Virus record (IMG/VR): IMGVR_UViG_3300014203_000012
Span: 1-64,000 of that record
Direction: 5' to 3' (one strand)
From: a virus
Lineage: Duplodnaviria > Caudoviricetes
Length of the DNA: 64,000 nt
Numbering within the stretch: position 1 is the first letter of the stretch; every line of letters starts with the position of its first letter. The notes under the pieces are model-generated. The model was not told where the DNA came from. It ran no database searches and saw nothing but the letters and a program-made list of their open reading frames with translations. A program made the translations under genes and the position numbers. Below are positions 9,716 to 63,981 of this stretch, piece after piece.

Positions 9716-10612
9716 ATGTTTGAGAAGTTCATTGCAAATATAAAAAATAAATCTAAGGTTGAACAAGAAAGGAATGTCGGCATAGATCTTCAACGTATAG
9801 TAGTCGGTCAAGCTGGAGCTTTATTGATTAAGCTGAAAAATATAGATGCAATGAGCGAGAAAGAAACTTATGAGGTTCTTAAGGATTCATACTCGCATAT
9901 TCTAGCAGATATATTTGATTGTAATAATAAAGAGTATAAATTCCTATTGGCATCTCCCAAGTTTCTGACTATCTTAACACAAGTAATTAATGAGTCTCCA
10001 ATTACTCACGATGAATGTGTTCATTGCAATAGGTTTATCTACGACTATATTGTATATGCCCGTCAAGATGAATATGTTAGGAAACTTCTATTCATGCTTG
10101 GAGAGGCAGTAAACAAAACTGTTACTAGAAAACTACTTGGTTGTGGAGTTGATGAGGAACTAGCTATATTCTTAGCAGTTGCAGTTAAATCCACATTCAA
10201 AGAAGAAGTAAATATTAAAAGATTAAACTTCACTCTAGCAACATCAAATCCTGGGTTTATGACAGTGCAGAAGATAATCGAAATATATGAAGCACTGTTT
10301 ACCAGAATTGGGTTCTTATTCACCACGACGATGTTTGATACTAGCATATCTAATACAGAAGATATATGGGTGACTAAAGAAGTATTAGATGCGAATGATA
10401 ATATCACATCAGCAAATTTATATATCCTTGAGAGTATGGAGCCAATTGAAATTACTAGAGTATTGTTGCTTTATTCAGAAGAGTTTAAGATGGTATACCG
10501 ATCTGAATATAAATCCACCAGATGCTCATTGCATACTTTAACTCCTCCGAATTTCATTAAAACCTCAATAATTGTTAAACAACTAGAAGGGGATGACATC
10601 GTACTTCCTTAA
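9716..10612 (+). CDS. Alpha-helical hypothetical protein co-transcribed with tubulin
   Basis: GGAGG RBS; ORF track. Confidence 0.7.
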   Translation: MFEKFIANIKNKSKVEQERNVGIDLQRIVVGQAGALLIKLKNIDAMSEKETYEVLKDSYSHILADIFDCNNKEYKFLLASPKFLTILTQVINESPITHDECVHCNRFIYDYIVYARQDEYVRKLLFMLGEAVNKTVTRKLLGCGVDEELAIFLAVAVKSTFKEEVNIKRLNFTLATSNPGFMTVQKIIEIYEALFTRIGFLFTTTMFDTSISNTEDIWVTKEVLDANDNITSANLYILESMEPIEITRVLLLYSEEFKMVYRSEYKSTRCSLHTLTPPNFIKTSIIVKQLEGDDIVLP

Positions 10613-12346: not shown

Positions 12347-14767
12347 ATGGCGTCAAATCTAAACATAAAAGACACAACAGACGAAATTCAAGCGAGATTA
12401 CCTAGCCAAGAATATGCGCTAGGGAAAGGGTTATTGCAACCATTTAACAATACCAACTCTGGTAGTCGTAAGATTATGCAGGGAATTCAGAAAGAGCAAG
12501 GTATGCAGCTGGAACATACAGAACCGGCTATAATCATGACAGGCTCTGAAAATCAATTTGGGGAATTATCATCCTCATTCATTAGGGCAGAAGCTAATTA
12601 TATTGTAATTGATAAGATTCCAAAATACAGCGGAAATGATAGTATCAATTATTCCAATTATTGGTTAATACTATTGGATTCCGAAAATGGTATGCTACAT
12701 GGCATAGAAAGGACAGATTATAGACACATTACAGAAAGCTATGGTTATAAATTTGATAATTCGTACATGGACGATCTCAACACTGGAGACCTCGTTCCTA
12801 GAGGAACACCAGTAAAGAAGAGTGCATCTTTTGATAAAGCAAATAATAAATGCGATGGCATTAATCTAACTACAGTGTATATGGCAACAGCACTAACAAC
12901 AGAAGATCCTATTGTTATTTCTGAATCTGCCGCGAAGAAATTTGCCGCTCCATTGTTCGCTAAAATACAGTCTATTGTAAATGACAATGATATTTTACTG
13001 AATCTGTATGGAGATAATGACAATTATAAAACATTTCCGGATATTGGGGAGAACGTTAAAAATGGAATACTTTGCGGTGTTCGTAGAGAACGCAAAGATG
13101 ACGAAGCGTTATACTCTCAAAGCTGGGAGAGACTAAAAGACATCATGATATCTGATGAAAGATATACAGTAGAAGGTAAAGTAATCGATATCAGTGTATA
13201 CTGCAACAACCCAGAGAAGTTGCAGAATTCTATCTATAACAAACAGATAGCTAAGTATTACAATATGAATCAGGAGTTTTGTGCTAAGCTTATAGCATCA
13301 GTACAGCCTATTTTAGATACTGGTGTAAAGATGACTTATGATCTACAAAAAATATACTGCACCTGTAAAGATGTAGTAGAAGGTAAGCAATATATCAATG
13401 ACCAAAAAGTCTTTAACAATATCGTTATGGAAATAGTTGTTATGGACATAATTCCACTTATCGCAGGAGATAAGATCACGGATAGATACGGCGGAAAGGG
13501 AGTTGTATCTAGAATACAACCAGACGCTCTTATGCCTAAAGTAAAATTAAGAAATGGATGGGAGCCGGTTGAAGCGCAATATAATAGTTGCACAGTTGTC
13601 AATCGTGAAAATCCAGGACAGTTATTTGAAACATCTGTAACATTTGTCGGCGAGAAGATTCTTGAAAGGATTGCCGATGGTACCAATACAATGAAACTAA
13701 TAGAAGCCGAAGATATGATATATAGATATATGAAATGTATATCTATAACACAATCTGATTATTATAAAGAAATTATAGCCAGTATGAGTGAAACTGATAG
13801 AATTAGTTTTGTAAATTCAATGCTATGCGATGGGGCTATTTATATGAGCATTAAGCCTATATCTGAAAGTATGTGTTTAGATAAGCTTAGGGCGCTATAT
13901 GCAGAATTCCCATGGATCGAATTATCCGAAATGCTTGTTCCTATACTTGACTCCAATAATAATTGGAGATATGTAGTAGCAAGACGTAGATTAGTAACTG
14001 GTAAGAAATATATTTACCGGTTGAAACAATTTGCTGAAGAGAAGTTCAGCGCAGTTTCTCTAGCTTCTACAAATATTAGAAGTGAGAATACCAAATCTAA
14101 AATGAATAAATTACATAAGACCGTTCACGCATCTACTCCAGTAAGATTCGGGGAAATGGAACTTGAAGATCTTATGCATACCGCAGTAGAGAACGTAATA
14201 CAAGTTATTATGTTGCTCTCAACTTCACCGTTAGCAAGACGGTTACATCAACAACTTCTAACTGGTAATCCATTTGATATTGATATCAAATTGGATAAAG
14301 ATTCAGTTAGTAGAAGTGTGGAAATAGTCAATGCTTATCTTAAGACAGCAGGTCTTAGATTAAAATTTGATAAAATTCCTAAGAAGAAAAATAATACAGC
14401 GTTAAGGAATATAGCAACACGAGTTCCTGGAGCTGTAGGATTAACTGATATCATTGATAGAGTCCCTGGATTCATAGAATCTATTGATTCTCTCAAAGCT
14501 TTGGTTGCGAAGAACAACCAAATAATTGGAAAGCCCCTCAATATTGCGTTTAGAGTACCAGACCATATCAAAACGCAAGATGGGGCAAACTTATATATTA
14601 AAGACAAAGAATTGTCTGAAGGTATTAGTGCTGTTATCGATCTAGTAGATTTCGAGGTCAAAACCGAAAAAGAACTAGAACATCGTATAGTTAATATAAG
14701 CACAACTGCTAAGAATCTAAATGTAGTGAATAGATGGGTAGCAGAAAGACTTCCAAATAACTTTTAA
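12347..14767 (+). CDS. Non-virion RNA polymerase beta subunit, C-terminal part
   Basis: TTED, GDKITDRYGGKGVVS, RENPGQ, PVRFGEME conserved beta motifs; early promoter. Confidence 0.9.
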   Translation: MASNLNIKDTTDEIQARLPSQEYALGKGLLQPFNNTNSGSRKIMQGIQKEQGMQLEHTEPAIIMTGSENQFGELSSSFIRAEANYIVIDKIPKYSGNDSINYSNYWLILLDSENGMLHGIERTDYRHITESYGYKFDNSYMDDLNTGDLVPRGTPVKKSASFDKANNKCDGINLTTVYMATALTTEDPIVISESAAKKFAAPLFAKIQSIVNDNDILLNLYGDNDNYKTFPDIGENVKNGILCGVRRERKDDEALYSQSWERLKDIMISDERYTVEGKVIDISVYCNNPEKLQNSIYNKQIAKYYNMNQEFCAKLIASVQPILDTGVKMTYDLQKIYCTCKDVVEGKQYINDQKVFNNIVMEIVVMDIIPLIAGDKITDRYGGKGVVSRIQPDALMPKVKLRNGWEPVEAQYNSCTVVNRENPGQLFETSVTFVGEKILERIADGTNTMKLIEAEDMIYRYMKCISITQSDYYKEIIASMSETDRISFVNSMLCDGAIYMSIKPISESMCLDKLRALYAEFPWIELSEMLVPILDSNNNWRYVVARRRLVTGKKYIYRLKQFAEEKFSAVSLASTNIRSENTKSKMNKLHKTVHASTPVRFGEMELEDLMHTAVENVIQVIMLLSTSPLARRLHQQLLTGNPFDIDIKLDKDSVSRSVEIVNAYLKTAGLRLKFDKIPKKKNNTALRNIATRVPGAVGLTDIIDRVPGFIESIDSLKALVAKNNQIIGKPLNIAFRVPDHIKTQDGANLYIKDKELSEGISAVIDLVDFEVKTEKELEHRIVNISTTAKNLNVVNRWVAERLPNNF

Positions 14768-14829: not shown

Positions 14830-17163
14830 ATGGAATATTATATGAGTACAGTGAAAGACGTATTAAAATCTGTACGAAAAGGAGAACTAGATCTTCTTAA
14901 TACATTAACTATCGTTAATATTAACAAAAATGCTAGGATTTTTCTAGAGCATGATCCAGAAGTTAAGAGTGAATTAGAAATGATGCGAGATATACTGGAG
15001 ATCTCGAATATACTTTATAATAATACTGATAGGGAAATGCTTCCATTAGAAGATGGGGTGTATGATCTTCTTGTTGTAAAGTATAATAATCTAACAGGGG
15101 GCAAAGCTCCAGTTGGTGCTCCACCAATACAATTTAATCAAGTATATCAGTCTAATTTATTAGAGAAACATAAAGCTGGTGATGGACCAATTCAAGCTGT
15201 AGTTAGAGTTAAGAATAAAGATGATATGTTATTCTTTAATGCATTAACGGCTAATTCTAAACCTATACCTTCCGATTTTGAGCATACTGTGAATAATACT
15301 CTAATCGGAAGGAGAATATCTAATGTAGCGCATACGTATCCAGAACTAGTTGGTACGTTAGATAAATGCAAGTTTGTACTAAATGCGCAAGCTGGAGAAC
15401 GTGGTCTTCTAACTGGAGACGGTGCTGATACGGTCATGGTCTTTGAAAGAGATTTTCTTGGGTATTATTATGGAAATGGTATCGATGCCAATGAACTTAT
15501 AGCTGAAATAAAATACGATGGAGTTTCAGTTGAAGCAGAAGTTGATGGCGATACTATTATTTCTGCTAGAAGTAGAGGGGATACCAATAATAATGAGGCA
15601 ACTGATTTGACTCCTATCTTTGGAGGATATGTGTTTAAACGGGCTACTGGCTATGTTCCTAAAGGTACGATCTTTGGAATAAAGTTTGAAGCTATAGTTA
15701 CCTATTATAATATCGATCAATTAAAAAGTAGATATGGTAAATCATATGCGAATGCTAGAAATGCAGTTATCGGATTGACTAGTTCTTTGGATGCTAGAAA
15801 GTTTAGAGATTTTATCACTCTTGTCCCATTAGCATGTTCACCAAAAACCAGTTTAGGTATTCCAAATAGAGAGGTAGAAATAAAGTTCCTAAACAAATAT
15901 TATTCTTCTGGAATTGATTTGCGATATGAAGTATTACGTGGTGATTATACCACTCTACTATTCTTAGTAAAAAGATTTGTAGAAGAGGCTGAATATATGA
16001 GATCATTTCTGCCATTCATGTATGATGGTGTGGTGGTATCATATACCGATCCAGCTATTGTCCAAAGATTAGGTAGGTTCAATTCTGTCAATAAATATAG
16101 TATCGCCATAAAGTTTAATGCTTTAAAGAAGCAAACAATCTTTACAGGCTATACCTATTCTATAGGACAGAACGGATTAGTAACTCCAAAGGCGAACTTC
16201 AATCCAGTTGAGTTTATGGGAGGAATCCATGATAATACAACTGCCCATTCTCTTAATAGGGTTAATAAGTTAGCTTTAAGAGTTGGGGATATTGTAGATA
16301 TTGAACTGGTTAATGATGTTATTTGCTATATAACAAAACCGCAAAATATCCATAACGACAATAACCTTAATCCAATTTTACAATTTCCAGAAATGTGTCC
16401 ATCATGCGGAGAATCAATTTATGCATCAGATAGTGGCAACTCTGCATATTGTATAAACTTTGAGTGTCCAGAAAGAAATGTTAAACGAATGTCAAATATG
16501 ATGAAGAAGCTAAATATAAAAGATTTCTCAACCCAAGCAGTAAGGCTATTAGGTATTTATAGTTTAGCTGATCTTCTAGACGTTACTAAAAATACAGCAT
16601 GTGAAATATTTGGTGATGTTGTAGGGGCTAAGCTTATGGATAGAATAGACCAAATTAAATTTTCAAACTATCCTGACTATAGAATAATAGGAGCGATAGG
16701 ATTTAGTTCTATTGCCGCCGAAAAATGGAAACGGATAATGAGTAATATTTCATTAGATACTTTGATAAATACACCAAGTAATAAATTGAAAGGGTTGCTT
16801 GGGTGTATCAAAGGTATTGGGCCCGCTGCAGTTGAGACGGTATTGTTTGAACGACCTATGTTTAAGAAAGATCTAATCGCTATATTTAATATGCCAAATG
16901 TTGTACACACGTTTGGGGATGTCTCAGTTAAACAGAGTGTACGGTTTACTGGCATACGAGATGAGGCATTAGCAAAAGAGTTTGAAAAGTTAGGGTTTGA
17001 TGCAGATGGTGAAAAATCTGTTACCAAACAAACAACTATTCTTATTGTCCCGTACCAAGGATTCCATTCTAGTAAGATGAATAAGATTAGCCCAACGTGT
17101 ATGGTGTTACCATTAGAATTAGCTTGGCAGCATATTAAGAATGGGACAATAGGCACATTCTGA
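14830..17163 (+). CDS. ligA: NAD-dependent DNA ligase
   Basis: EIKYDG adenylation motif, SRGD, NARN, DGVV, AIKF, CPSCG Zn finger, HhH, BRCT-like C-terminus. Confidence 0.92.
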   Translation: MEYYMSTVKDVLKSVRKGELDLLNTLTIVNINKNARIFLEHDPEVKSELEMMRDILEISNILYNNTDREMLPLEDGVYDLLVVKYNNLTGGKAPVGAPPIQFNQVYQSNLLEKHKAGDGPIQAVVRVKNKDDMLFFNALTANSKPIPSDFEHTVNNTLIGRRISNVAHTYPELVGTLDKCKFVLNAQAGERGLLTGDGADTVMVFERDFLGYYYGNGIDANELIAEIKYDGVSVEAEVDGDTIISARSRGDTNNNEATDLTPIFGGYVFKRATGYVPKGTIFGIKFEAIVTYYNIDQLKSRYGKSYANARNAVIGLTSSLDARKFRDFITLVPLACSPKTSLGIPNREVEIKFLNKYYSSGIDLRYEVLRGDYTTLLFLVKRFVEEAEYMRSFLPFMYDGVVVSYTDPAIVQRLGRFNSVNKYSIAIKFNALKKQTIFTGYTYSIGQNGLVTPKANFNPVEFMGGIHDNTTAHSLNRVNKLALRVGDIVDIELVNDVICYITKPQNIHNDNNLNPILQFPEMCPSCGESIYASDSGNSAYCINFECPERNVKRMSNMMKKLNIKDFSTQAVRLLGIYSLADLLDVTKNTACEIFGDVVGAKLMDRIDQIKFSNYPDYRIIGAIGFSSIAAEKWKRIMSNISLDTLINTPSNKLKGLLGCIKGIGPAAVETVLFERPMFKKDLIAIFNMPNVVHTFGDVSVKQSVRFTGIRDEALAKEFEKLGFDADGEKSVTKQTTILIVPYQGFHSSKMNKISPTCMVLPLELAWQHIKNGTIGTF

Positions 17164-17294: not shown

Positions 17295-17897
17295 ATGAAA
17301 AAATACGAAGAAACAGGTATCGACAATGAAATCCTTAAAGTTATGACCGAGAAGTTACATTACGGTTGGGATACTAGCTTCAGTCGCGATTCAGTTAAAA
17401 TGTTAATTGAAGGCTTGGCTAAATATCTTGGCGAAGTAAAAGATAAGAAAGTTGTAAAAGCTGCTGTATTGGAAGATCTTAAAGGTAATTTCCACTTCGG
17501 CGCATTCGTTGAATATAACCAAACTGAAGATGGTAAGGGCAGCTTTAGCTTAACTTATACATTTGATAAAGATGATATTAAACCAGAATTTGAAAAGGTA
17601 ACTGCGAGCAATCCAGTATTGCATCACATTCTTGCCGATGTTGGTCTTACTAAATATGGTATTAGTTTCAAATCATTTGAAGGTCAAGAATTTATCGTTC
17701 CTACAATGTGCGTTGTTGCTGATTGCATCAAAGCGTATTTACATGCGAATGTTAGTATTGACCCTACAGTTGAGCTAGAAGATTTCTTCGAAGCCACTGC
17801 ACAACTCGATGGTGATGCTGTATATTATAGCTTAACACCATCTGCTATTGTTAAACAACATATCAAAGCGGACGCTGATATTGAAACAGCTGCCTAA
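17295..17897 (+). CDS. Hypothetical acidic protein
   Basis: ORF track; GGGGA RBS. Confidence 0.75.
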   Translation: MKKYEETGIDNEILKVMTEKLHYGWDTSFSRDSVKMLIEGLAKYLGEVKDKKVVKAAVLEDLKGNFHFGAFVEYNQTEDGKGSFSLTYTFDKDDIKPEFEKVTASNPVLHHILADVGLTKYGISFKSFEGQEFIVPTMCVVADCIKAYLHANVSIDPTVELEDFFEATAQLDGDAVYYSLTPSAIVKQHIKADADIETAA

Positions 17898-26787: not shown

Positions 26788-27750
26788 CTAATATTCATCA
26801 ATTGCTCTATTACCAATAAGAACTAATGGGAAATCCATATTAGCTGAAGTGTTTCTAGCAACTCCAGATCTAACGTCTATTCTCATTTGCTGCAATAGAA
26901 AATCTGCAGGTCTTGGAACGTTAGGTACAGACTGTCCAGTTGAAGTATCCATTATATCAAAATATTTATCTTGCGTTTCTTGGTTGTATATAACAACAGC
27001 TTTAATGAAAGGATTATTTTCCATACTCATAGCATTCTGTTCTGGTGTTATATTACGCAGATAGTTTTCATATCCAGGTTCCCCACTAATAGGTTTGATG
27101 TCATTATCAATACCTATTCCAACCATACCCATAGTTGGACTATTAATTTGCATAGGGGTTATACCGCCGAATGGCATGCCCATACCTTGAACTGAACCGA
27201 CAGGAGTATTGATGAATGCATTATACATATCCATGATTTTTTTATCATCGTCATCCTTGTCATTAAGTTTGAATTCCTTAACCCGTTTCATATCAAGGTT
27301 ATGGCAGTTAGTAATAACAGAGTTTATTTCTCTAATAGCAGAAATCTTATTACCAACTAATCCTGCAGCGGCACCAGTTAAATCGCATAAATAATTATAT
27401 TTATTCTTAAGAGTTTTACTAGCACGGACCAAATGCAAATCTGCTTGTATATTGGCACTAAGACCATCAATCTGATTGATAGATGCGGCTAGCATATTTG
27501 TAGTATCTTCATATGTTTTTCTATATGATATATTACCATCGATAGGGGATAGTTCTGCTCTACCCTCAACTGCAACATATTCACCGCTACCATCATCTAT
27601 TCTTTTTTTACTAGGAGGGCGACCTCTTTTTTTAGCTGGCTCTTCAGTATTAGCTAGACTTAGAGCTTCTTCATCGTTGTTTACAAAGAATTTACTATTA
27701 AAGCCAAAACTAGTCGGTTCGACCCTGGATACTATTTTCTTTAATTCCAT
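26788..27750 (-). CDS. AT-hook-containing protein with coiled coil and G/M/P-rich segment
   Basis: KKRGRPPSKK; late promoter. Confidence 0.7.
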   Translation of the reverse strand: MELKKIVSRVEPTSFGFNSKFFVNNDEEALSLANTEEPAKKRGRPPSKKRIDDGSGEYVAVEGRAELSPIDGNISYRKTYEDTTNMLAASINQIDGLSANIQADLHLVRASKTLKNKYNYLCDLTGAAAGLVGNKISAIREINSVITNCHNLDMKRVKEFKLNDKDDDDKKIMDMYNAFINTPVGSVQGMGMPFGGITPMQINSPTMGMVGIGIDNDIKPISGEPGYENYLRNITPEQNAMSMENNPFIKAVVIYNQETQDKYFDIMDTSTGQSVPNVPRPADFLLQQMRIDVRSGVARNTSANMDFPLVLIGNRAIDEY

Positions 27751-28411: not shown

Positions 28412-30352
28412 ATGATTAGTGGATATAAAGATGGTAGTGATTTAACACTTATGAATGCTACGTATCATTATGGTAGAAAAGACGATGATGGTAAATTTAA
28501 AAAAGACAATATGGTTATTGTATTTAAAGACAATAAAACTGGTAAGAAAGATTGTCGAACTATATACGAGCCACCTTATACTTATTACAAAACTAAGGAT
28601 GATGCAACGGTAGGGTACAATCAGTTCTTTATAGATAGAGCTAAAGTTGAACCGATTACTGTTCCATATAAGAACTTAGAAAAGAGTATTGCCGAACAAA
28701 CAGGACAATTAGAATTGTTTTATGATAATATAAAATGTGGGAATAGGTATGCTAATAAAAGACTTCACTTAGATGAGCGTATTTTCGGATCTGACTTGCA
28801 TATTAATAATTTTTATAGAAAAGAATTCGATAAAGTATATGTAAACGATATCAAGCCTATAGATAAAGCATATCTAGATATAGAAGCAGATATTAAATAC
28901 ATGAGAGGAGACTTTCCAGAACCTGGAGAGTGTCCAATTAATGCCGTATCACTAATGGTTGAAAAGACCAATACGTTATACACTTTCGTCCTTAGGGATT
29001 CTCGTAATCCTTTGATTGCACAATTTGAAAAAGGATTAGATAAGAATAACTTCATTGAGAAATTTAAAGAGTTTCTACAAACAAATGTCGGCGGATATAA
29101 AAAACTTGTTGGGTTTAAACTCGATAAGATTCAAGTAAAACTCATATTCTTCGATGATGAACTTGATATGCTTATGAATCTATTCAGATTAATAAATATG
29201 ATTCAGCCGGATTTTGTATTAGCGTGGAACATGGGGTTTGATATACCTTATATTATCCAGCGTTTAATAAATTTAGGAGCTGATCCTAGAGAAGTTATTT
29301 GCCATCCAGATTTCTCTGAGAAATACTGCGAGTATTTCGTTGATGAGAGAAATAAGAGTATAATCGAGCAACGTGGTGACTTTGCAGATATATCATCGTA
29401 CTCTATATATCTAGATCAGATGATTCAATTTGCATCGAGAAGAAAAGGTCAATCTGCATTTAGTAGTAATAAACTAAATGATATTGGAGAAGCTGTATGT
29501 AAAGTAAGAAAATTAAGTTGGAAGCATATAACTTCAGAGATGGCAGAACTTCCTTACTTAGACTTTTGGACATTCATTATGTACAATATGATGGATGTTA
29601 TCGTACAGAAATGTATCGAAGAGAAGACAGGTGATATAAATTATATATATAGTAAGGCTATGGCTAACTCTACAATGTATCACAAAGCTCATAGACAAAC
29701 AGTTTACTTAGCCAATAGAGCAGTAACTTCATTCCTTAAGAACAATGATGTTATTGCTGGTAATAACGTAAATAAATTCAATGAAAAACCTACAGAGAAA
29801 TATGCGGGAGCGTTTGTTGCTGACCCTGTACTAGTTTCAGATATGGCTAAAGTTAAGATTAATGGCGTTCCTGTAATGGTTTATAAGAATGCGAATGATT
29901 ATGACTACAAACGTCTGTATCCTAGTATAACTCAAGAATTTAATATGGCTCCAAATACTCAAGTTGGTATGATTGAAATGCCAGAGACTATTTATAAAGA
30001 AGAAAATCCAAATAAAGATCCTAAATTCGTTAGAGCTGGAGCGTATGTGGAAAATCTAGCATCTCAAAATTATCTAGAATTCTGTAAGCGTTGGCTTCAT
30101 CTTGGCGGATTTAGAGAAGTCTACGATGACATTGTAGAGTATTTCACTATGAAAAGAACTCCACTAAATGGCACTATGGATCTACAATTATCCCAAGGTA
30201 TAAAAGACATAGTATTCAGATTGCATAAAGGGGAAAATCTACAAATTGCTCAACGTCATACTGGCAATATTAAGGTAGTAGATAGATATTTAGCAATGCC
30301 TAAACATGTAGAAGATGCAGTTAATGACTATAGGAAAGGGATGAAATTATAA
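28412..30352 (+). CDS. Family B DNA polymerase, N-terminal half (3'-5' exonuclease + motif A)
   Basis: ExoI DIEAD, ExoII WNMGFDIPY, ExoIII YNMMDV, motif A DYKRLYPS; motifs B and C absent. Confidence 0.88.
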   Translation: MISGYKDGSDLTLMNATYHYGRKDDDGKFKKDNMVIVFKDNKTGKKDCRTIYEPPYTYYKTKDDATVGYNQFFIDRAKVEPITVPYKNLEKSIAEQTGQLELFYDNIKCGNRYANKRLHLDERIFGSDLHINNFYRKEFDKVYVNDIKPIDKAYLDIEADIKYMRGDFPEPGECPINAVSLMVEKTNTLYTFVLRDSRNPLIAQFEKGLDKNNFIEKFKEFLQTNVGGYKKLVGFKLDKIQVKLIFFDDELDMLMNLFRLINMIQPDFVLAWNMGFDIPYIIQRLINLGADPREVICHPDFSEKYCEYFVDERNKSIIEQRGDFADISSYSIYLDQMIQFASRRKGQSAFSSNKLNDIGEAVCKVRKLSWKHITSEMAELPYLDFWTFIMYNMMDVIVQKCIEEKTGDINYIYSKAMANSTMYHKAHRQTVYLANRAVTSFLKNNDVIAGNNVNKFNEKPTEKYAGAFVADPVLVSDMAKVKINGVPVMVYKNANDYDYKRLYPSITQEFNMAPNTQVGMIEMPETIYKEENPNKDPKFVRAGAYVENLASQNYLEFCKRWLHLGGFREVYDDIVEYFTMKRTPLNGTMDLQLSQGIKDIVFRLHKGENLQIAQRHTGNIKVVDRYLAMPKHVEDAVNDYRKGMKL

Positions 30353-31065
30353 TGCAAAATATAATAGAATATAAAGTTGATGCGAAAACTATTCTATCTA
30401 TAATCGAAATATCTAAAAAGATTAAAAGTTTCTCTGTGGTGTGTATAAACACACCACAGGGTATAGACATGTATGGGTATAATATAGATTTTGGACTGAT
30501 GAAAACAATATCCGATAATAAATTAACATTACTATCTTTACCTATGGATATAGCAATATTATCTAGCGATATATCTTCTTTAGAAAAAGAAATAGTTGAA
30601 CAAAATATAACTGAAGTGTATATAGGGGTCAGTGCCAGTGAAGAATTGACAACTAGCCCAATAGATGGGAAACCCATACCAATTTTTATATTTGGAAAAT
30701 ATATTAGAGGTGGAAATATAGAAGTTCCACTGTGCGATTATGATTTTTTTCTCAATATAACTATTAGAATAAATGCAGAAGTTATATATTCTACAGTACT
30801 TGAGCAAAAAGAATTAACAGATGATCTAGAATTTATAACCATGCGTAATACAAAAAGCGAAGATGGAATGTCAATGCTGCATATAGGAGATCATTTAGTT
30901 TACGTTACTCCAAATATGCTCAGTATTCTTAAAGGTGACGAAGCTTCTATTGAGATAAGAAGCGCTAATGTTGGAAAGCTTGCATTATTTACTATAACTA
31001 AAAAAAAGAAAAAATGCATAGTAAAAATTATATTCAGGATAATGGATATAAGAAAACAACCCTGA
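30352..31065 (+). CDS. Hypothetical protein translationally coupled to PolB-N (clamp-like candidate)
   Basis: TAATG overlap; 237 aa alpha/beta pattern. Confidence 0.6.
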   Translation: MQNIIEYKVDAKTILSIIEISKKIKSFSVVCINTPQGIDMYGYNIDFGLMKTISDNKLTLLSLPMDIAILSSDISSLEKEIVEQNITEVYIGVSASEELTTSPIDGKPIPIFIFGKYIRGGNIEVPLCDYDFFLNITIRINAEVIYSTVLEQKELTDDLEFITMRNTKSEDGMSMLHIGDHLVYVTPNMLSILKGDEASIEIRSANVGKLALFTITKKKKKCIVKIIFRIMDIRKQP

Positions 31066-36279: not shown

Positions 36280-36306
36280 AATATAAAAGAATAAGAGGTG
36301 TTTATA

Positions 36307-47658: not shown

Positions 47659-49234
47659 CTATTATCACCCTTTCTACAATGGTGCGCTCTACTATGTTTC
47701 TCTGTGCCATATTCATTTGATAGTTGTATATCTGTTGAATATAAGCAATTTGTCTAGCGGCAACAATTTGATTATATTTCACATCAAGCTCTTTATCACT
47801 AATGAATATATCGGTAGACTCTGTAGCATACTTATCGAATATCTGTTGTTTCTGCTTATAATATTTCTTGATAGATAAGAACCCTCTATCTACTGCTTCT
47901 ATATAAACAGTATCTCTGGCTCTTGTTCTCCCCAATGTTTGTCTAGCCAACACTTCAGACTTAAAAGGTTCAGCTAATACAATAGTTAATACAAGCCCAG
48001 GAATATCTATTGCTGCACCGCAGGACTTAGTAGTTGAAAGTATAACCCTCTTATTCAACTGCTCAGCCTTTATATTCTTAGGAACTAGAGAATTATATAT
48101 TCCTATCTGACCAAGATACTCTGGGAAATAATAACTCATCCAATTAAATACTATTTGTATCGCACTATTAGTGCCTATATATATTAAAGTTTTACCATTC
48201 TTTTTCCTACTAATTTCCATGAGAATATAGATTAACTTATAGAACTCTGGTCTTGTTACTGCATAATTTGTATAATTGTTTCTATCAAACCCATAAGCAT
48301 TCTTACAATCATTTATTTGAAATGCAGTAGGATGAGAGTTATAACTGATCCCTATATATTTTGTTCTAGGATCTTCCTCCTCATTAAATAGATCAATAGC
48401 AGGAACGTTCTTAAAGCACATTTGGTAGATTATATTTTCTTCTTCATCACTTCTAGCGGGAGTTGCAGTAAGATATATAGTCTTCATTGTATTAGTGAAG
48501 AAATCTATCTTACAAATATTATCGAAATTAAGATGAGCTTCATCGTATATCTTAATCCCAACCCCAAGTAGTTTAAATAACCCTCCAACTTTATCCCAAC
48601 CGTGTTTATCTCCATAACTCTTTATAGTATCATGGGAAGCTAGAATAAACTTATACTTTGTAAAATCATTCATTCCATTTAATAGTCTAGCGATAGATCC
48701 ACTGCCAGCAATAATATAAACTTCTTCTTTCTTTATATCTGTATACTCTACAATATTATTTTTCCATTGATCTATCCATCCTAAAGATGAAGTAATCATC
48801 ATTGTCATTATAGACGTGTATGATGCCATAGCTATACTTACATACGTCTTACCAACTCCAGGATTTAGATTTACTGATAGTTGAGACTTTGCTTTAGTAT
48901 AGCTATACTCATCCTTACCAAGAACAAATCTAATAGCTTCTTTTTGAACGTCATCTCTTGGTAAATATTTAATCCTAATTGGTTCTACTTTTCTACATGG
49001 ATCGCATTTACTATCTAAATATGCCTTGCAACCAAATACACCTTCTATAAAGTATATATCTGCTCCTCTTGGAAGATACAATTTTTTATTCTCTTCATCA
49101 TAATAAATTGCTTTAGGAAAACTTATATGTCTTATTTTATCATACGTACTAAAAAACTTTTCTAATCTAGGAGCATTTCCAAGCTCATAGTTATTAATAA
49201 CTATGCTTGAATGTCTCACTTCTATTTTATTCAT
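47651..49234 (-). CDS. Superfamily 2 DEAH helicase (UvsW-like)
   Basis: NPGVGKT, DEAH, TAT, AIDIP, QTLGRTR. Confidence 0.88.
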   Translation of the reverse strand: MNKIEVRHSSIVINNYELGNAPRLEKFFSTYDKIRHISFPKAIYYDEENKKLYLPRGADIYFIEGVFGCKAYLDSKCDPCRKVEPIRIKYLPRDDVQKEAIRFVLGKDEYSYTKAKSQLSVNLNPGVGKTYVSIAMASYTSIMTMMITSSLGWIDQWKNNIVEYTDIKKEEVYIIAGSGSIARLLNGMNDFTKYKFILASHDTIKSYGDKHGWDKVGGLFKLLGVGIKIYDEAHLNFDNICKIDFFTNTMKTIYLTATPARSDEEENIIYQMCFKNVPAIDLFNEEEDPRTKYIGISYNSHPTAFQINDCKNAYGFDRNNYTNYAVTRPEFYKLIYILMEISRKKNGKTLIYIGTNSAIQIVFNWMSYYFPEYLGQIGIYNSLVPKNIKAEQLNKRVILSTTKSCGAAIDIPGLVLTIVLAEPFKSEVLARQTLGRTRARDTVYIEAVDRGFLSIKKYYKQKQQIFDKYATESTDIFISDKELDVKYNQIVAARQIAYIQQIYNYQMNMAQRNIVERTIVERVIIDG

Positions 49235-50187: not shown

Positions 50188-50230
50188 TGTTATCAATCTC
50201 CTTCAAGATATAATGCAATTGTCTTATTGC

Positions 50231-52024: not shown

Positions 52025-54187
52025 TTAATTTGTATCTTTGACTCTATGCCGTATAGCTGGACAGAAGTTTTCTTGCTTAGGATTGTCGTCTATGATATTA
52101 GACGTATCACTAAGAAAGTTCTGTGGCTGTTTCATGAAGAATAGATCCATATATGATGGAGAATCCTTCTTGAAGGATAGTGGATAATACAATGCTTTGC
52201 TTAAGTTTTGATAGAGCATAGATATTGTAATACTAGGATTATCAGTAAGCGCCTGATTCAAAGTTATAACCTGATATGGCTCATCTGGGCAATCCCAATC
52301 TGGATTGTCTAGAATACTACCTGCACTTCTTATTTGATTCATAAGAAGTATTTCTAAATGGACAGCCATAATATGTAGATTACCTTCTAATATAAGTTCC
52401 ATCAAAGCCTGCAGTATAGCATCTTTAGTATAACTCTCTGGGCTTTCTTTCCTTTTCTTAGGATCTATTTTCTTATTTAGTGTGCTTTGAATATCATCAA
52501 GTGTCTTGCTTAATTCATTATTGTGAAGTTTAATAAAGAATAAAGCCAGGTCTTGTTTATTCAGTTCAAATAGATCTAGCTGCAACATATCATCTTCAGT
52601 TGTAATCGCATGTTTCTTTAAATATGTATTAAACTCTGACGATAAATACATTGGGTTATCATCTTCTGTTTTTATAATTGTACGTTCTCCCTCTTTATCC
52701 TCCATATAGAATTCTGTGGTGAACGTATTATAATCTCCATCTACAACGTCTTCTTCGTCGTCATCATCCAAATAGTCTGTTTTCTTATAATCATCTTCAT
52801 TCTCTTGAATAAGTTTAAGAGGATCAAAAACCATATAAGTTCCTTTTGGAAAGTTAAAATCTGTTGATAACTGAAGGATATTAATATTAATCGCAAAATA
52901 ATTAGTGAATTCTGGAACCCATGACATTTTCCGAATAATAGTTTCGAGTAAATGCTTAGCCGATAGTTGCCGCTGAGTAAGTTCGGATGAAAGGTTTTCA
53001 GCAGCGAACTTACCAATCTTGATATTATTATTGGTATACGCCAAGTCTCCGTAACATTTATAACATACACCATTACCTCTAGCGGCAGATGCACATGTCA
53101 TTGGACTACGAAGATAAATTGTTTTACCTATTAGAGATGTATCTTTTGAGTGTATGGAATATTCTATTCCATTTGGATTGAACCGATAATATCTATCGGT
53201 TAGAAGATCAAGTATCTTTTTATTTTTAATATTTACTATTTGGAAATTACTAGTATGACAATCATAAGTAGAATCGTCATGTATCGTCGTATCTATATTA
53301 TTCAAACCTAAGATACGAGCAAAGTTACCACTATACCCTACATTGTTCTTCATCTGAATTTGTGCAACCCGAGAAGAACTAGAGTCTATAAATTGGTTAA
53401 GAATACTATTCAGTGAACCACTAAGATAACTACCATCAATGATAGCAGGATGAACCCCGCCTTGACCATTGGGTTTGGACCCGATGTGGATTGCAAATTC
53501 TTTATATTGTCTTTCATTAATCCCTTCTCTAGATAAGAACGGATCTCTGAGACAATGATGGTACCCTATTAAATTTTTAGAATCGTTAATGATAATAGCT
53601 TTAGCTCTTCTAGCTTTTATCATACCGAAATCCTTAACATCTTCGATAGGAGTATTAGGGAATGTAGTATGCATGATAGCATCAAACTCTGGGCTAGCAT
53701 TCATTAATGCAATATCATCTTCCAAATTAATTGTGTTTGCAATAAACATAGAGAACCTGTCGACATCAACAAAGTTATGTAAAGTATCATCGATAATGTT
53801 ATTCATACGCACACTATCCATTTCCTTTCTAACCTCATCAACAAAATGATCGTCAATAAATCCTTTAATATTATCCTGAGTAATTGCAGTATGAAAATAC
53901 AAATGTTTACCTGTGATCTGTTTCGCCGAACGTACAATCAGATACCAGTGAATTATATTAAAATAGAGATCCATTATAGACATATCGACGATGTCACCAT
54001 CACCAAAGTCTACCGTGATAAAAGTTTTTTGTAGAAATTCGGTTTCGATACCGTCTCGCATTAGGTTTAGAACACCATCATAGTGCTCGTGCCAATTATT
54101 CATGGTTATATCACTTGTGTGCAAAACCATCTTTCCTGTCTTTACAAGCTCTTGGTAAATATGATAATTATTAAAATTAGTTAGCAT
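52025..54187 (-). CDS. Non-virion RNA polymerase beta' subunit, C-terminal part (phiKZ gp74-like)
   Basis: Bridge-helix-like SSRVAQ..VGYSGNFAR, LRSPMTC..VCYKCYG Zn site, IGKFAAENLSSELTQRQLSAKH trigger loop, VHLEIL. Confidence 0.9.
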   Translation of the reverse strand: MLTNFNNYHIYQELVKTGKMVLHTSDITMNNWHEHYDGVLNLMRDGIETEFLQKTFITVDFGDGDIVDMSIMDLYFNIIHWYLIVRSAKQITGKHLYFHTAITQDNIKGFIDDHFVDEVRKEMDSVRMNNIIDDTLHNFVDVDRFSMFIANTINLEDDIALMNASPEFDAIMHTTFPNTPIEDVKDFGMIKARRAKAIIINDSKNLIGYHHCLRDPFLSREGINERQYKEFAIHIGSKPNGQGGVHPAIIDGSYLSGSLNSILNQFIDSSSSRVAQIQMKNNVGYSGNFARILGLNNIDTTIHDDSTYDCHTSNFQIVNIKNKKILDLLTDRYYRFNPNGIEYSIHSKDTSLIGKTIYLRSPMTCASAARGNGVCYKCYGDLAYTNNNIKIGKFAAENLSSELTQRQLSAKHLLETIIRKMSWVPEFTNYFAININILQLSTDFNFPKGTYMVFDPLKLIQENEDDYKKTDYLDDDDEEDVVDGDYNTFTTEFYMEDKEGERTIIKTEDDNPMYLSSEFNTYLKKHAITTEDDMLQLDLFELNKQDLALFFIKLHNNELSKTLDDIQSTLNKKIDPKKRKESPESYTKDAILQALMELILEGNLHIMAVHLEILLMNQIRSAGSILDNPDWDCPDEPYQVITLNQALTDNPSITISMLYQNLSKALYYPLSFKKDSPSYMDLFFMKQPQNFLSDTSNIIDDNPKQENFCPAIRHRVKDTN

Positions 54188-54323: not shown

Positions 54324-54719
54324 TTACCCTTTTATTTTTCGTATTTTATATATCTCTTGAATTACTCTATCATTGAATATGGTATAATCAACTTGATGAT
54401 TGTAGGGATTAATTTTATTAAAATATCTGCCATCTACCTTCTTGCACATCTTCCCAATCCATTTCATCATTTTACTATATGCTTCATTTGTCGATTCTGA
54501 TTCTTTGTAGTTTAGAACGGTGTATATCTTATGATCGAAAAAGTCTTCGTAGTCGAAACATCCTACAAACTTATCTATTTTTATAATTATTACACCTTTA
54601 TCTCCTTTAGATACTATCGCATAGTCAATTTCACCTTTCTTTAAACCTCTACCTACACACATCTCCACACTAGATATATTAGGTATTCTATCAACTATAG
54701 CCTCTCCAAAAAATGACAT
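54324..54719 (-). CDS. Hypothetical early protein
   Basis: GGAGGT RBS; early promoter. Confidence 0.7.
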   Translation of the reverse strand: MSFFGEAIVDRIPNISSVEMCVGRGLKKGEIDYAIVSKGDKGVIIIKIDKFVGCFDYEDFFDHKIYTVLNYKESESTNEAYSKMMKWIGKMCKKVDGRYFNKINPYNHQVDYTIFNDRVIQEIYKIRKIKG

Positions 54720-55236: not shown

Positions 55237-55267
55237 TTTCAAAAACCCCCTAAGGTATATTTTATTT

Positions 55268-55412: not shown

Positions 55413-57506
55413 ATGTTTAATGGCAAATTAATGGAGAGATATACTGGAATACTAAAGAGGATTATGCCTTTGTCTATTCCGGCTTTAACAGACGAAGAGT
55501 TGGATGAGGCAATTCAATACTCAATTCAGAAAAGATTTAAGGATAGTGATTGCTCTATCCATAATAATTATAAACACAAAACGGTTAATACCACAATTGC
55601 ACAGCTTACAAACTATATCTTAGACAAAGAACCAATCATGACTTCTTATGGCTGTTTATTTACTAAACATGGTAAAGTAAAGAACCCACTGTATGACTTG
55701 ATTGAAGAGATTGTAACTATCAGGGATAAGTTTAAAAAGGAAATGTTTAAATATCCTAAAGGTAGTGATGAATACGAAAAATACTATCTATTGCAGTTAT
55801 TAGCCAAGGTCGACTCAAACGCCCTGTATGGTTGCTTAGGCAACTACAGTTCTATGTTTTACAACATTTATGTTGCCACCAGTATCACCCGCCAGGGTAA
55901 GTCCTGTATTTCTGCTTCGATCATGCTGTTTGAAGGGTTACTTGCAAACAATGTAAAATTCGGATCTCTTAATGAGATTATTACATTCATTGACAACACA
56001 AGAACTGAAAAGAGAACCTTTAATGACAATGATATTCTAGATAGAGAAATATCTCTTGCAGAATCTTATTGCAAAATTATGGGCACTTGTGGATATAACT
56101 GGATTCCTGATAAGAAAGACGCTTTACTAGTATGGGATATTATGAGTAGATTAACTCCACAAGATTTGACTAGGTTATATTATAAGAATAATATGTATGA
56201 GTTCTTTAACAATAGCCGAATGAATGCTCTTCTTATTAAGATCCTTTGCACACTGAAGCTCCCATTCTTAGACCCTAACAAACCACCAAAAGAAATAAAG
56301 GCCGATATGCAACAACTAATCGCATATGTAAAAGAGTATGTGTATTACAGTTACCAAATCATTGATAAACTTGAGAGAGTAGAAACGATGATGCGTGATA
56401 TCGTATTAGTTACAGATACTGACTCTTGTATCATTAGTTTAGAGCCATGGTATAGGTTTGTTTTGGAAAAGACAAAGGGTGTCGAAATGAATATCAAGCA
56501 TGAGATAATTGATATAGTCGAGTATATGGAAATGGATTCTTTTGGGGATAGAGAGTTACTTTCTATCGTTGAACGAGTTGACCATTCATACGATTACGAT
56601 TTCTACAACGAAGAGCTTATCGAACAGGCAAGAATGATTAATCCAGTACAGATGATCCCACAGGATGGTCTGAGACATTCTATCATAAATATCATGTCGT
56701 ATTGCGTAAGTGAACTTATCTTGGATTACATGTATAAATATACGGTAAACCATAACTCTGCAGCACCAAATAGAAAGTGTCTTCTTATTATGAAGAATGA
56801 GTATCTATTCAAGAGTATTCTTCTTACTGATGGTAAAAAGAATTACGCATCTATACAAGAAATACAAGAAGGTAATATTGTTCCAAAAGATGCATCTCTA
56901 GCAATATCTGGTCTGCCAATTGATAAGGTTGGTATACCGCAATCTACAGCTAAAGCTCTTAAAAAGATTCTTTATGAAGATATTTTAAACTCTGATGGTA
57001 TAGATCAGATTAAAACTCTTAAAGGAATAGCGATTCTTGAAAGAAAGATCTTTAATTCTATTGAGAATGGGGAAACTATGTATCATAAACCTGCTAGAAT
57101 CAAATCTATCGGTACATATGATATGCCATTCAGAATTCAAGGTATAAAAGCATCCGTCGCATACAATGCTTTGAGGGATGAACATGAAGAAGCTATTGAT
57201 TTGGAAAAGAGAAATAGTATTCTTATCATTAAGGTAAATATAAACAAGAAGAATATTGAAGGTCTTAAAATATCTAATCCTAGTAAGTTTGAACAGATGA
57301 CCAAGCTTCTAGATACTAAAGAGTTTAACGGAGATGCAATAGCAGTAGCTATTCCGTCTAGTAATTCTATTCCTAAATGGCTAATTGAGTTTATCGATTA
57401 CACCACAATCATTCATGACAATTTAACTAACTTTCCACTAGAGTCTATTGGAATTACACGTCTTAATAATAAAAATATAACATATTCCAATATATTGGAA
57501 TTATAA
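55413..57506 (+). CDS. Family B DNA polymerase, C-terminal half (motifs B, C, thumb)
   Basis: Motif B KVDSNALYG, ITRQG, motif C TDTDS, KKNYA. Confidence 0.88.
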   Translation: MFNGKLMERYTGILKRIMPLSIPALTDEELDEAIQYSIQKRFKDSDCSIHNNYKHKTVNTTIAQLTNYILDKEPIMTSYGCLFTKHGKVKNPLYDLIEEIVTIRDKFKKEMFKYPKGSDEYEKYYLLQLLAKVDSNALYGCLGNYSSMFYNIYVATSITRQGKSCISASIMLFEGLLANNVKFGSLNEIITFIDNTRTEKRTFNDNDILDREISLAESYCKIMGTCGYNWIPDKKDALLVWDIMSRLTPQDLTRLYYKNNMYEFFNNSRMNALLIKILCTLKLPFLDPNKPPKEIKADMQQLIAYVKEYVYYSYQIIDKLERVETMMRDIVLVTDTDSCIISLEPWYRFVLEKTKGVEMNIKHEIIDIVEYMEMDSFGDRELLSIVERVDHSYDYDFYNEELIEQARMINPVQMIPQDGLRHSIINIMSYCVSELILDYMYKYTVNHNSAAPNRKCLLIMKNEYLFKSILLTDGKKNYASIQEIQEGNIVPKDASLAISGLPIDKVGIPQSTAKALKKILYEDILNSDGIDQIKTLKGIAILERKIFNSIENGETMYHKPARIKSIGTYDMPFRIQGIKASVAYNALRDEHEEAIDLEKRNSILIIKVNINKKNIEGLKISNPSKFEQMTKLLDTKEFNGDAIAVAIPSSNSIPKWLIEFIDYTTIIHDNLTNFPLESIGITRLNNKNITYSNILEL

Positions 57507-57848: not shown

Positions 57849-57877
57849 ACTATATAAGAATATAAGAGGTGTTTATA

Positions 57878-60282: not shown

Positions 60283-61539
60283 ATGTTCCAAGACGCTAAA
60301 ACCTATGCCGATGTGTCCAAGGAGGAACAAGATGTTTACACTAAAGAGGTAAATCTGCTTGATATCATCACAGTTCTTGAGAACCAAGGGATCTCTATTG
60401 ATTACAAAGACAGTCTTGCGGTGACTTGTTCTAAAATGAAAAAGATCTTATTTGATCGCGTTTCGGCTGCGATGTTTACCAAGAAAGCATTGTCGGTTTC
60501 CGATCAAGAGCTTACCTCTAAAATACAAGAATTTCTTGGTGAAGCAAATGATATCTTTATGCTAAGTGGCTATTGCATGAAAATCAATTTAGTTGCAAAA
60601 ACAGTAAAAATATTTGATGGCGACAGATTGCTTATGACTTATCAAGATGGTAAAATGGAACTGAGTGCGGCATTATCTAAAGAAGAAGTTCAAGATATTA
60701 AAGATTCTAATCCTGATGTACCAATAGTGGATACACCGCTGCTTATCTCAGAGGTTATAGTTTTACCACCATTGGAAAAAACAGTAACTAAACCATTGCA
60801 GAAGTCTATTGTAGTAGACTCTACTGTGGTTGATGAAACTCCTAAATCTACAGAGATTGAAATTAATCGAGGCGGAGAAAAATTCAAAGTAGTTGATGGA
60901 AAATTCATTAGTAAAGATGATAAAACTAAAGCTACTGAGCAGCAGTTTATTGACGCTGCGAATGCTCGTGCTGCACAAATAATGGCCAAAACTCCTAAAT
61001 CTGCAGAGATTGAAATTAATCGCGATGGAGAAAAATTCAAAGTAGTTGATGGAAAATTCATTAGTAAAGCTAATAAATCTAAAGCTACTGAGCAGCAGTT
61101 TATTGACGCTGCGAATGCTCGTGCTGCACAAATAATGGCCAAAACTGCTAGAAATGCTAGTGCCACAATTGCAAAGAATAAAAGTGTAGTAGAAGGCGTG
61201 AAAGTTATTAATAATCCTGAAACTACAATCACGTTAGAGAACACTCAGCAGATAGCCACAAGAATTGATATTGATCTGTTAAAGAAATATATCAATATCG
61301 ACAGTCTGAAAAATGCTCCAGCTGAGCTCAAAGCTAAAATTATGGCTAGGCTGGAAGGTGCAATAAAAACAGTATTGAAGGCTGGTGGTTTCGACAAATT
61401 TCTTAATCTTAAGAATGCCAAATATGGTCTTTCTAAATCTACGTTTTTCGATAAGGATAGATATATTTTGTTTAATGGTAAGCATTATATGAAGTTTATC
61501 GATGCAGAGAACTTTGAATTCGATAATAAGCTTAATTAA
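60283..61539 (+). CDS. Hypothetical early protein with internal 51 aa duplication
   Basis: AAGGAG RBS; ORF track. Confidence 0.75.
   Translation: MFQDAKTYADVSKEEQDVYTKEVNLLDIITVLENQGISIDYKDSLAVTCSKMKKILFDRVSAAMFTKKALSVSDQELTSKIQEFLGEANDIFMLSGYCMKINLVAKTVKIFDGDRLLMTYQDGKMELSAALSKEEVQDIKDSNPDVPIVDTPLLISEVIVLPPLEKTVTKPLQKSIVVDSTVVDETPKSTEIEINRGGEKFKVVDGKFISKDDKTKATEQQFIDAANARAAQIMAKTPKSAEIEINRDGEKFKVVDGKFISKANKSKATEQQFIDAANARAAQIMAKTARNASATIAKNKSVVEGVKVINNPETTITLENTQQIATRIDIDLLKKYINIDSLKNAPAELKAKIMARLEGAIKTVLKAGGFDKFLNLKNAKYGLSKSTFFDKDRYILFNGKHYMKFIDAENFEFDNKLN
60836..61146 (+). repeat. Near-perfect 153 bp tandem duplication (2 copies)
   Basis: actcctaaatct.cagagattgaaattaatcg at 60838 and 60991. 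Confidence 0.9.
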
Positions 61540-63200: not shown

Positions 63201-63222
63201 GAATGGATTGGGGGTAAGCAAA

Positions 63223-63981
63223 ATGAAGTATTCAAATTATAAATATTATATTGATGCTGCAATGAAATTATTAAATGGACAGGTGAATAGAAATCTACGC
63301 TGTTATAAATTCTCTTATGTATATTCTAATGATGAGGTACATGCAAGAGAATGTAATGGCGCTATAACTTTTAATCTTCAAAGTATGGCATATGCACTAA
63401 AAGACATGGAACCGCTTATAAGGTTTACGTACATTATAAGGACGGTCGCACATGAGCTATCACATATAGATCAAGATGTGAACTATTATAAATATGAAAG
63501 AGACTATTCATATAGAGCATGGATAGAAAAATCTAATGAATTAAATTCTATTTGTTTTATTATGGATAATCTTAATATGATAAAAATGAATTTAGGAGAC
63601 TTCAACCATACAATCTTAGAAGATCTCCATCAGTATGCAAAAATAAATGGCACAAAATATGTGCCATCATCTAAAAGTAAAATGGTAGCCAATATAATGG
63701 AAACCTATATGATAGATACGAATAGAGCCAGATATAAAGATCTTGACACTATCCTGTTAAATCTTAACGGGGTGAGATATATGATAAAACATAAGGGAGA
63801 GATAATAGATCCTAACGTGATCTATCCAGTAATAAATGAACTAAGTAACTTCAATAGTATGAAGGTATTCAATATGATTAAAGAGGATAATAGTTTAATC
63901 ATCAAAGTGCAAACTGAAGATGAACAAAAAAGACTAGAAGAAATAATATATCGTATAGATAAAAAATATATTATGGCATAA
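63223..63981 (+). CDS. HExxH metallopeptidase-like early protein
   Basis: VAHELSHIDQ. Confidence 0.65.
   Translation: MKYSNYKYYIDAAMKLLNGQVNRNLRCYKFSYVYSNDEVHARECNGAITFNLQSMAYALKDMEPLIRFTYIIRTVAHELSHIDQDVNYYKYERDYSYRAWIEKSNELNSICFIMDNLNMIKMNLGDFNHTILEDLHQYAKINGTKYVPSSKSKMVANIMETYMIDTNRARYKDLDTILLNLNGVRYMIKHKGEIIDPNVIYPVINELSNFNSMKVFNMIKEDNSLIIKVQTEDEQKRLEEIIYRIDKKYIMA

Follow-up and report, generated by a model that had tools for sequence, protein, structure and literature searches.

A short peptide shared by the tails of DNA-acting proteins in an uncultured AR9-like jumbo phage, with a clamp-fold protein as its candidate receptor

Why should an RNA polymerase subunit, a DNA polymerase, a helicase and a DNA ligase, which have no common ancestry, carry versions of the same short peptide outside their catalytic cores? 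The question is raised by a 64,000-nucleotide stretch of phage DNA (hereafter the window), which is the first 64 kb of IMG/VR record IMGVR_UViG_3300014203_000012 (183,919 bp, 32.7% GC, approximately 75% complete by the CheckV estimate), and in particular by the C-terminal extension of the beta-C subunit of its non-virion RNA polymerase (nvRNAP). The gene set of this phage includes a split PolB and split virion (vRNAP) and non-virion RNA polymerases. Since its beta-C is only 34% identical to those of the nearest isolates, Bacillus phages AR9 and PBS1, the source is, judging from sequence, a so far uncultured phage related to the AR9-like jumbo phages. An earlier note on this DNA had described the peptide as [IV][AVI].R[VIL] and proposed that it is a docking or targeting signal; all the peptides quoted there were recovered at their positions. 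We have compared this genome (G000, with a proteome of 193 open reading frames) with five complete related genomes fetched for the purpose (G001 to G005); identity to G000 is approximately 64% for the core proteins of G001 and approximately 50% for G005. The baseline for enrichment was obtained by shuffling within each protein, and AR9, which is similar in composition and fold content, served as a control. The genes for a DnaB-like helicase and an SbcD-like nuclease are missing from the incomplete G000 record.

The motif appended to the enzyme tails is real. As first described, it occurs 16 times in the window versus 5.0±2.2 in the shuffled sequences, and 31 times in the genome versus 13.2±3.8, and so clearly exceeds the composition-matched background. 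The consensus in this phage is [IV]-[VAI]-x-R-[VI]-[P/D], and the excess of [IV]-[VAI]-x-R-[VI] over the shuffles in G000 ranges from 2.4 to 19 fold with the tightness of the definition (for example, 9 versus 0.65 for IVER, and 11 versus 0.59 for I[VAI].R[VI][PD]). The motif also emerges from unbiased enumeration: IVER is the 5th of 55,675 gapped patterns, after patterns of Cys and Gly, and IV.R is the 1st among the patterns found in the first or last 30 amino acids of proteins (16 segments versus 1.5 expected). The corresponding counts in AR9 are at background (18 versus 17.2 for [IV][AVI].R[VIL], 1 versus 1.1 for IVER, 1 versus 0.67 for I[VAI].R[VI][PD]); the excess is therefore not generic to proteins of this composition and fold content. 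Individual copies differ in synonymous codons (ATA/ATT/ATC; AGA/AGG/CGA/CGT), which points to selection on the peptide and rules out an element acting at the DNA level.

The copies are concentrated at the ends of proteins. In G000, 13 of 22 lie no more than 25 amino acids from a terminus, where 17% would be expected (p = 1e-5), and the same bias is found in 6 of 6 genomes, with p from 6e-3 to 4e-13. The segments that bear them (tails, linkers and insertions) are additions absent from the AR9 orthologues: homology to AR9 ends at residue 672 of beta-C, 473 of the helicase and 564 of PolB-N, with the copies lying beyond these points; the gp226-like (sigma-like) nvRNAP subunit has 36 extra residues at its N-terminus, which bear the motif, and the BLAST alignment places the PolB-C copy within an insertion. 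In the AlphaFold2 (AF2) model of the superfamily 2 (SF2) helicase, the predicted local distance difference test (pLDDT) score averages 85.8 and falls below 50 only at residues 514-530, the site of the tandem copies. The carrier proteins are mutually unrelated, as are the flanks of the copies, although three HNH proteins with the motif are paralogues. Not every match is a docking copy. The claim that the peptides lie outside folded cores holds for the tails of beta-C, PolB-N and the helicase and for the PolB-C insertion, but not for the protein coupled to PolB-N, in which the IIFRI near the C-terminus (31027-31041, residues 226-230) is a core beta-strand; a match at PolB-N residue 281 is likewise due to chance or to a core strand. 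The peptides in the products of the genes at 60283 and 54324 are present as described, but orthologues lend them little support. The weak copies in the ligase and in beta'-C were confirmed by the comparison with relatives, which carry canonical lineage motifs at the same positions.

The strongest evidence comes from the relatives, where the peptide is either kept, at identities of 50-80%, or replaced at the same sites by another. Two relatives of beta-C at approximately 80% identity retain all five copies, and the 20 or so nearest homologues of the SF2 helicase end in the same motif, while those at a greater distance terminate in repeated peptides of other kinds. The motif is enriched again in G001 and G005 (z = 6.0 and 1.8, compared with 4.6 in G000), where it is found at the orthologous sites: the helicase C-terminus, all sites of the beta-C tail, the PolB-N tail, the PolB-C insertion, the ligase linker, the N-termini of the AT-hook protein and of the gp226-like subunit, and the C-termini of the 63208, 118461 and HNH proteins. 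In these two genomes it is also present at the C-terminus of the DnaB-like helicase (three copies) and at the N-terminus of the SbcD-like nuclease. At orthologous sites the motif is kept even though the flanks diverge.

Each of the other three genomes has a peptide of its own, distinct from IVxRV, on the same orthologous tails: [KRP]LF[HRNY]KI in G002, [IV]PA[TFEY][IF] in G003 and [PKV]I[RKS]F[VI] in G004 (for example, LFHKI, VPATI and PIRFV). The matrix of motifs versus genomes is strictly diagonal, each lineage peptide being at background elsewhere and AR9 having none: LFxKI is enriched in G002 only (19 versus 9.1, z = 3.4), PAxI in G003 only (30 versus 1.9, z = 21), and PIRF in G004 only (17 versus 4.3, z = 5.8), with 11/19, 24/30 and 14/17 of the respective instances being terminal. 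The carriers are nvRNAP beta-N, beta-C, beta'-C and the gp226-like subunit, together with PolB-N, both helicases, the ligase, SbcD, RNase H-like proteins, the AT-hook protein, HNH endonucleases and small uncharacterized proteins. All variants share the frame aliphatic-x-x-x-aliphatic-[E/D/P], in which positions 2-4 are specific to the lineage. More than 12 unrelated motif types can be recognized among phages whose helicases are 50-60% identical, and the PolB-N tails of 28 further genomes each carry two or three copies of a genome-specific peptide. The agreement between tails can also be expressed as a pairing: when the helicase tail and the beta'-C tail are compared by their best-matching 6-mers in 47 dereplicated genomes, the similarity is 15.3 within the same genome versus 12.8 across genomes, a difference reached in 0 of 10,000 permutations. 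Because the same peptide switches in concert on approximately 20 unrelated proteins, a single co-evolving reader is strongly supported by these comparisons, in line with the one phage hub protein postulated in the earlier note.

The choice of carriers is equally marked. Among proteins with annotated AR9 orthologues, the motif of the genome in question is found in 41 of 124 DNA-acting proteins but in only 1 of the 128 that are virion or late proteins; each genome on its own shows this split significantly (p from 0.0009 to 0.03), and the vRNAP subunits do not have the motif. The earlier impression that virion proteins are spared is thus borne out, and a signal for capsid targeting or internal proteins, of the T4 capsid-targeting sequence type, is ruled out.

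Some observations on the carriers can be added here. The DnaB-like helicase, a homologue of AR9 gp007 (G001 187640-189460, G005 66765-68570), ends in two or three copies at regular intervals, with Pro-rich spacers (RVPIP) after them. A 287-amino acid protein (window 49333-50196), paralogous to the N-terminal half of the gp226-like subunit, is without the N-terminal docking peptide of the full-length subunit. The beta-C gene is interrupted near residue 600 in G002 (L103/L105, with an insert of approximately 2 kb) and in G003 (L104/L106, with a gap of a few hundred bases), possibly by an intron or a homing-endonuclease insertion; the downstream piece still bears the lineage-specific tail peptides in both.

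Which protein might be the reader? The gene at 30352-31065 is translationally coupled to PolB-N, and fast-diverging positional homologues lie 3' of PolB-N in 5 of 5 relatives; AR9 has a DEDD exonuclease at this place, and both the protein and the tails are absent from AR9. With 123 homologues, AF2 gives a model with pLDDT 96.3 and a predicted template modelling score of 0.89, consisting of two topologically similar beta-alpha-beta-beta-beta domains, as in sliding clamps, and the fold matches include PDB 6drt (gp45 with the T4 ligase peptide). On the strength of this model we confidently assign to the protein a sliding-clamp/PCNA-like fold. A profile search collects 632 representatives of the family at 50% identity, and it is present in 22 of the 22 clade genomes with a completeness of 90% or more, and hence belongs to the clade core. 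With an identity of 38.6% between G000 and G001, compared with a median of 63.8% for orthologues, it is among the fastest-evolving pairs. Four basic residues that may face the DNA, K22 and K25 (helix 11-24), K194 and K217, are nearly invariant in the 123 homologues.

We consider that the peptide is a docking motif for a network of clamp interactions similar to the one around T4 gp45, which here also takes in the phage's own RNA polymerase and is written in lineage-private motifs, with a probability of roughly 60%. The earlier note had offered clamp binding as one of several options, and it is the clamp-fold protein coupled to PolB-N that now favours it. According to this hypothesis, one phage-encoded receptor, most likely the clamp-fold protein, would read, possibly by strand or groove insertion, a peptide that nearly all non-virion DNA-acting phage proteins carry on flexible tails at the N- or C-terminus, on linkers or on insertions. 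The clamp, or a processivity factor derived from a clamp, would sit on phage DNA as a toolbelt to recruit the split PolB, the helicases, the ligase, RNase H, SbcD and the nvRNAP, and would be exploited by the resident HNH homing endonucleases. The nvRNAP would be attached through the tails of beta-N, beta-C, beta'-C and the sigma-like subunit, and such tethering may link late transcription to DNA that has been replicated, as happens in T4; several copies per tail would add avidity. The peptides are short and hydrophobic (plus acidic) and occur in disordered tails or linkers, as is the case for clamp-interacting peptides, and the proteins that carry them, namely the replicative polymerase (PolB-N, PolB-C) and other DNA-transaction enzymes (ligase, helicases, SbcD, RNase H, RNA polymerase subunits), are of the kind known as clamp clients. 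The RNase H-like protein is a separate gene product with one C-terminal copy, which fits docking by a peptide in place of a fusion of RNase H to the clamp.

Several points weigh against this interpretation. The peptides of all lineages fail to match the canonical clamp-binding consensus sequences (the PCNA-interacting peptide or PIP box, Qxx[ILM]xx[FY][FY], and QL[SD]LF), and several copies stand at N-termini, a placement less often seen in ligands of clamps. As a rule clamp-binding motifs change very little in evolution, while the present peptide turns over fast. The similarity of motifs between genomes follows the identity of the clamp better than that of three control proteins, but the signal is weak (partial Mantel rho = 0.165, permutation p = 0.008) and may reflect matched evolutionary rates rather than coupling. 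A clamp loader was not detected with PF13177 in G000, G001 and G003, although divergent loaders may escape such a search and the protein may work without one; for this reason the protein may be a monomeric processivity subunit of the UL42/Rhc type, and we know of no such subunit that serves as a hub for multiple clients. The protein may equally well form an oligomeric ring or act in the monomeric mode. Finally, one of the clade-specific proteins encoded at 9716-10612, 17295-17897, 17988-18611 and 54814-55242, which have no AR9 BLAST hit, may be the receptor instead.

A further possibility, which we put forward tentatively, is a genome-private address code, in which a receptor that evolves fast (either the clamp-fold protein or some other one) and the tails of approximately 20 clients are re-coded together between sister lineages, so that only the bearers of the code would reach the replicating phage DNA. 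Resident homing endonucleases would copy the code, and conflict with relatives that co-infect the cell, with their selfish nucleases or with host mimics would drive its diversification. If true, this would represent an orthogonal layer of access control for a viral replisome and transcription machine, beyond a toolbelt of the T4 type.

The features of the window on which these considerations are based are collected in Table 1.

Table 1. Peptide copies and candidate receptor in the window.
Feature	Position in window	Strand	Basis or comment
nvRNAP beta-C C-terminal extension, residues 686-806	14402..14764	+	Translation; lies past AR9 homology
Five beta-C copies	14411-14425, 14450-14464, 14543-14557, 14723-14737, 14738-14752	+	Kept in relatives of 80%, 68% and 49% identity
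NAD-dependent DNA ligase, N-terminal linker, weak copy AVVRV	15196..15210	+	Canonical lineage motifs at same linker position in G001-G005
AT-hook-like protein (320 aa, 26788-27750), N-terminal copy, residues 6-10	27721..27735	-	Orthologue N-termini carry own lineage peptide in G001-G004
PolB-N tail, three copies 10-12 residues apart	30209..30289 (30209-30223, 30245-30259, 30275-30289)	+	Beyond AR9 homology
Sliding-clamp/PCNA-fold protein, 237 aa, candidate receptor	30352..31065	+	Start overlaps PolB-N stop codon
SF2 helicase extreme C-terminus, two tandem copies, residues 517-526 of 530	47666..47695	-	AF2 low-confidence tail; homologues
nvRNAP beta'-C, weak copy AIRHRV, 10 residues before C-terminus	52040..52057	-	Lineage peptide on orthologous C-termini in G001-G005 and many genomes
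131-aa protein (54324-54719), N-terminal copy IVDRI-P	54684..54698	-	No orthologue found
PolB-C 17-aa insertion, copy IVERV-D	56565..56579	+	AR9 alignment; kept in G001
Protein 60283-61539, internal copy, uncertain status	61252..61266	+	95 aa before C-terminus; G001 orthologue only a weak match
257-aa protein (63208-63981), C-terminal copy IIYRI-D	63943..63957	+	Kept in G001 and G005

The receptor could also be a phage protein other than the clamp. The peptide would then be an address tag for a compartment, factory or condensate, comparable to a nuclear localization or cargo-loading signal, and the clamp-fold protein would be only the processivity subunit of the polymerase. The carrier set comprises practically every protein that has to get to phage DNA, the selfish HNH endonucleases and the AT-hook protein among them, but it is already explained by clamp reading; the peptides are terminal, occur in either orientation and are multivalent, as would suit a tag, and their fast private diversification suits gatekeeping better than a replication hub. 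Import into a phage nucleus, another option of the earlier note, has lost ground, because phmmer searches of the six proteomes with phiKZ gp54 and gp69 detected no chimallin or Imp1 homologue (single-sequence searches, best E-values 0.3 or weaker). Moreover, AR9-like phages are without chimallin and outside the nucleus-forming family, and import in chimalliviruses does not use terminal signals (PMC13282480). The clade does encode an FtsZ/tubulin-like protein and several conserved proteins of no known family without an AR9 BLAST hit, but searches of Pfam, PHROGs, PDB profiles and the Atlas gave no candidate for a shell or receptor. On balance we regard an address tag of this kind as rather unlikely.

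Most of the clade-core proteins without an AR9 BLAST hit gave no annotation. The FtsZ/tubulin-like gene (window 8361-9518; clade core, no AR9 BLAST hit) has a weak match to PF00091 and FtsZ hits in the PDB with E-values down to 8e-7, and its neighbour at 9716-10612 encodes a 298-amino acid protein, also clade core without an AR9 BLAST hit and of no detectable family. The products of 9716-10612, 17295-17897 and 17988-18611 had no matches in PHROGs, Pfam or PDB profiles. A 518-amino acid protein (genome 161175-162731, L010:11175-12731) gave no lead in Pfam, phage databases or the Atlas, the nearest named Atlas clusters being kinase-like with a low score; together with the next two genes (215 and 173 amino acids) it forms three consecutive clade-core genes without an AR9 BLAST hit, and the G003 orthologue of the 215-amino acid protein bears a C-terminal lineage peptide. 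Other proteins were considered and set aside. A 602-amino acid protein (76798-78606), examined as a shell protein, is the major capsid protein (PDB 7x30); the product of G001 184632-185327 has the motifs of a PD-(D/E)XK nuclease and is therefore likely a client rather than a receptor; and the GroEL-like chaperonin (genome 72226-73977), encoded in the primase/gp226-like operon and 23% identical to that of AR9, is also present in AR9, which has no tails. Seven RCC1-like beta-propeller paralogues (window 36298-37155 and 57869-59017; genome 84010-85158, 87707-88858, 138472-139611, 151149-151685 and 181017-182171) are confined to G000, with none in G001-G005, and so cannot be a clade-wide reader. 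Their near-identical repeat frameworks dominate the over-represented peptide patterns of G000, and neither the five complete relatives nor AR9 has any, which indicates a very recent, lineage-specific expansion.

A receptor of the host is a less probable alternative still, and we give it little weight. It might be the beta-clamp, the single-stranded DNA-binding protein, a chaperone, or the adaptor of an AAA+ protease with the peptide as a degron, and the motif would differ as the hosts differ. G000, G001 and G005 share a motif type despite a divergence of approximately 50%, as might be expected of phages that infect one group of hosts; degrons are typically terminal; and the LF- and F-centred cores of the peptides of G002 and G004 faintly resemble bacterial clamp-binding motifs. 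However, since the pockets by which host hubs bind their partners show high conservation, the diversity of motif types described above would call for an equally diverse host receptor. The phage has its own clamp-fold protein beside PolB, and multivalent degrons on all the essential replication and transcription enzymes are implausible.

That the peptide has no function, being a by-product of composition, beta-strand propensity, paralogous tails or a DNA-level element at gene ends, is hardly credible. The shortness and degeneracy of the motif, the instances that match by chance or belong to core strands (PolB-N, the clamp) and the paralogy of three HNH carriers speak for it, but this explanation is contradicted by the shuffle and AR9 controls, the synonymous codon variation, the unrelated carriers and flanks, the conservation of orthologous sites amid diverging flanks, the de novo terminal motifs specific to each genome, and the permutation test of tail pairing.

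The results have several implications. The clamp-fold protein represents an unannotated family, which belongs to the core genes of a large uncultured clade of AR9-like jumbo phages, and is probably the processivity or hub factor that had been missing for their split PolB. The clamp hypothesis predicts that the nvRNAP is tethered by the tails of four subunits to the hub of the replisome, which would give a mechanism that links late transcription with replication in phages other than those of the T4 family. The concerted replacement of a docking code over approximately 20 proteins is an unusually clean natural case of co-evolution between a hub and its linear motifs, and may offer a ready supply of orthogonal peptide-receptor pairs. 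In annotation, small uncharacterized proteins with a terminal motif can be assigned to DNA transactions. As the earlier note had surmised, a search of the literature found no description of the motif in these phages, nor of the clamp-fold family or of a concerted recoding of docking peptides in jumbo phages.

Known systems resemble the present one to different degrees. Import in chimalliviruses (Imp1/PicA) singles out the same class of proteins, namely replication and transcription enzymes and homing endonucleases, but it recognizes surface patches of folded cargo (PMC13282480), and neither chimallin nor Imp1 was detected in the six proteomes. For the clamp-fold protein itself, close comparisons are the herpesvirus processivity subunits UL42/UL44 and, in the same group, Rhc of PhiKZ, a fusion of RNase H to a clamp-like domain that serves the split PolB of that phage as a monomeric processivity subunit (PMC13648687, preprint). 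Rhc has an RNase H domain and a large folded polymerase interface, with no multi-client peptide network described, whereas the protein studied here is without an RNase H domain; homology of its family to Rhc (gp155) was rejected, as hhalign gives a probability of 0.2 and no profile similarity.

The closest parallel in architecture is T4/RB69 gp45. In T4 the interchangeable C-termini, hydrophobic and acidic in character, of the polymerase gp43, the sigma-like factor gp55 and the co-activator gp33, carried on unstructured linkers, bind gp45 (PMC2988020), and the T4 ligase also binds it by a peptide (PMC2988020; PDB 6drt). The phages described here differ from this system in that the consensus is another one and copies are also found at N-termini, in linkers and as 2-5 repeats; in the far larger list of clients, approximately 15-25 proteins per genome including HNH endonucleases; in that the clients include subunits of the phage's own multisubunit RNA polymerase rather than accessories of the host enzyme; in that the PF13177 search of the three genomes found no clamp loader; and in the wholesale replacement of the motif between related lineages. 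The PIP box of PCNA and the QL[SD]LF motif of the beta-clamp follow the same logic of a hub and peptides in disordered regions, with overlapping clients (polymerase, ligase, nucleases, helicases), but they are conserved across the domains of life, while here the code changes among phages whose core proteins are approximately 50% identical. A clamp toolbelt with linear motifs is already known; what would be unusual here is its evolutionary behaviour.

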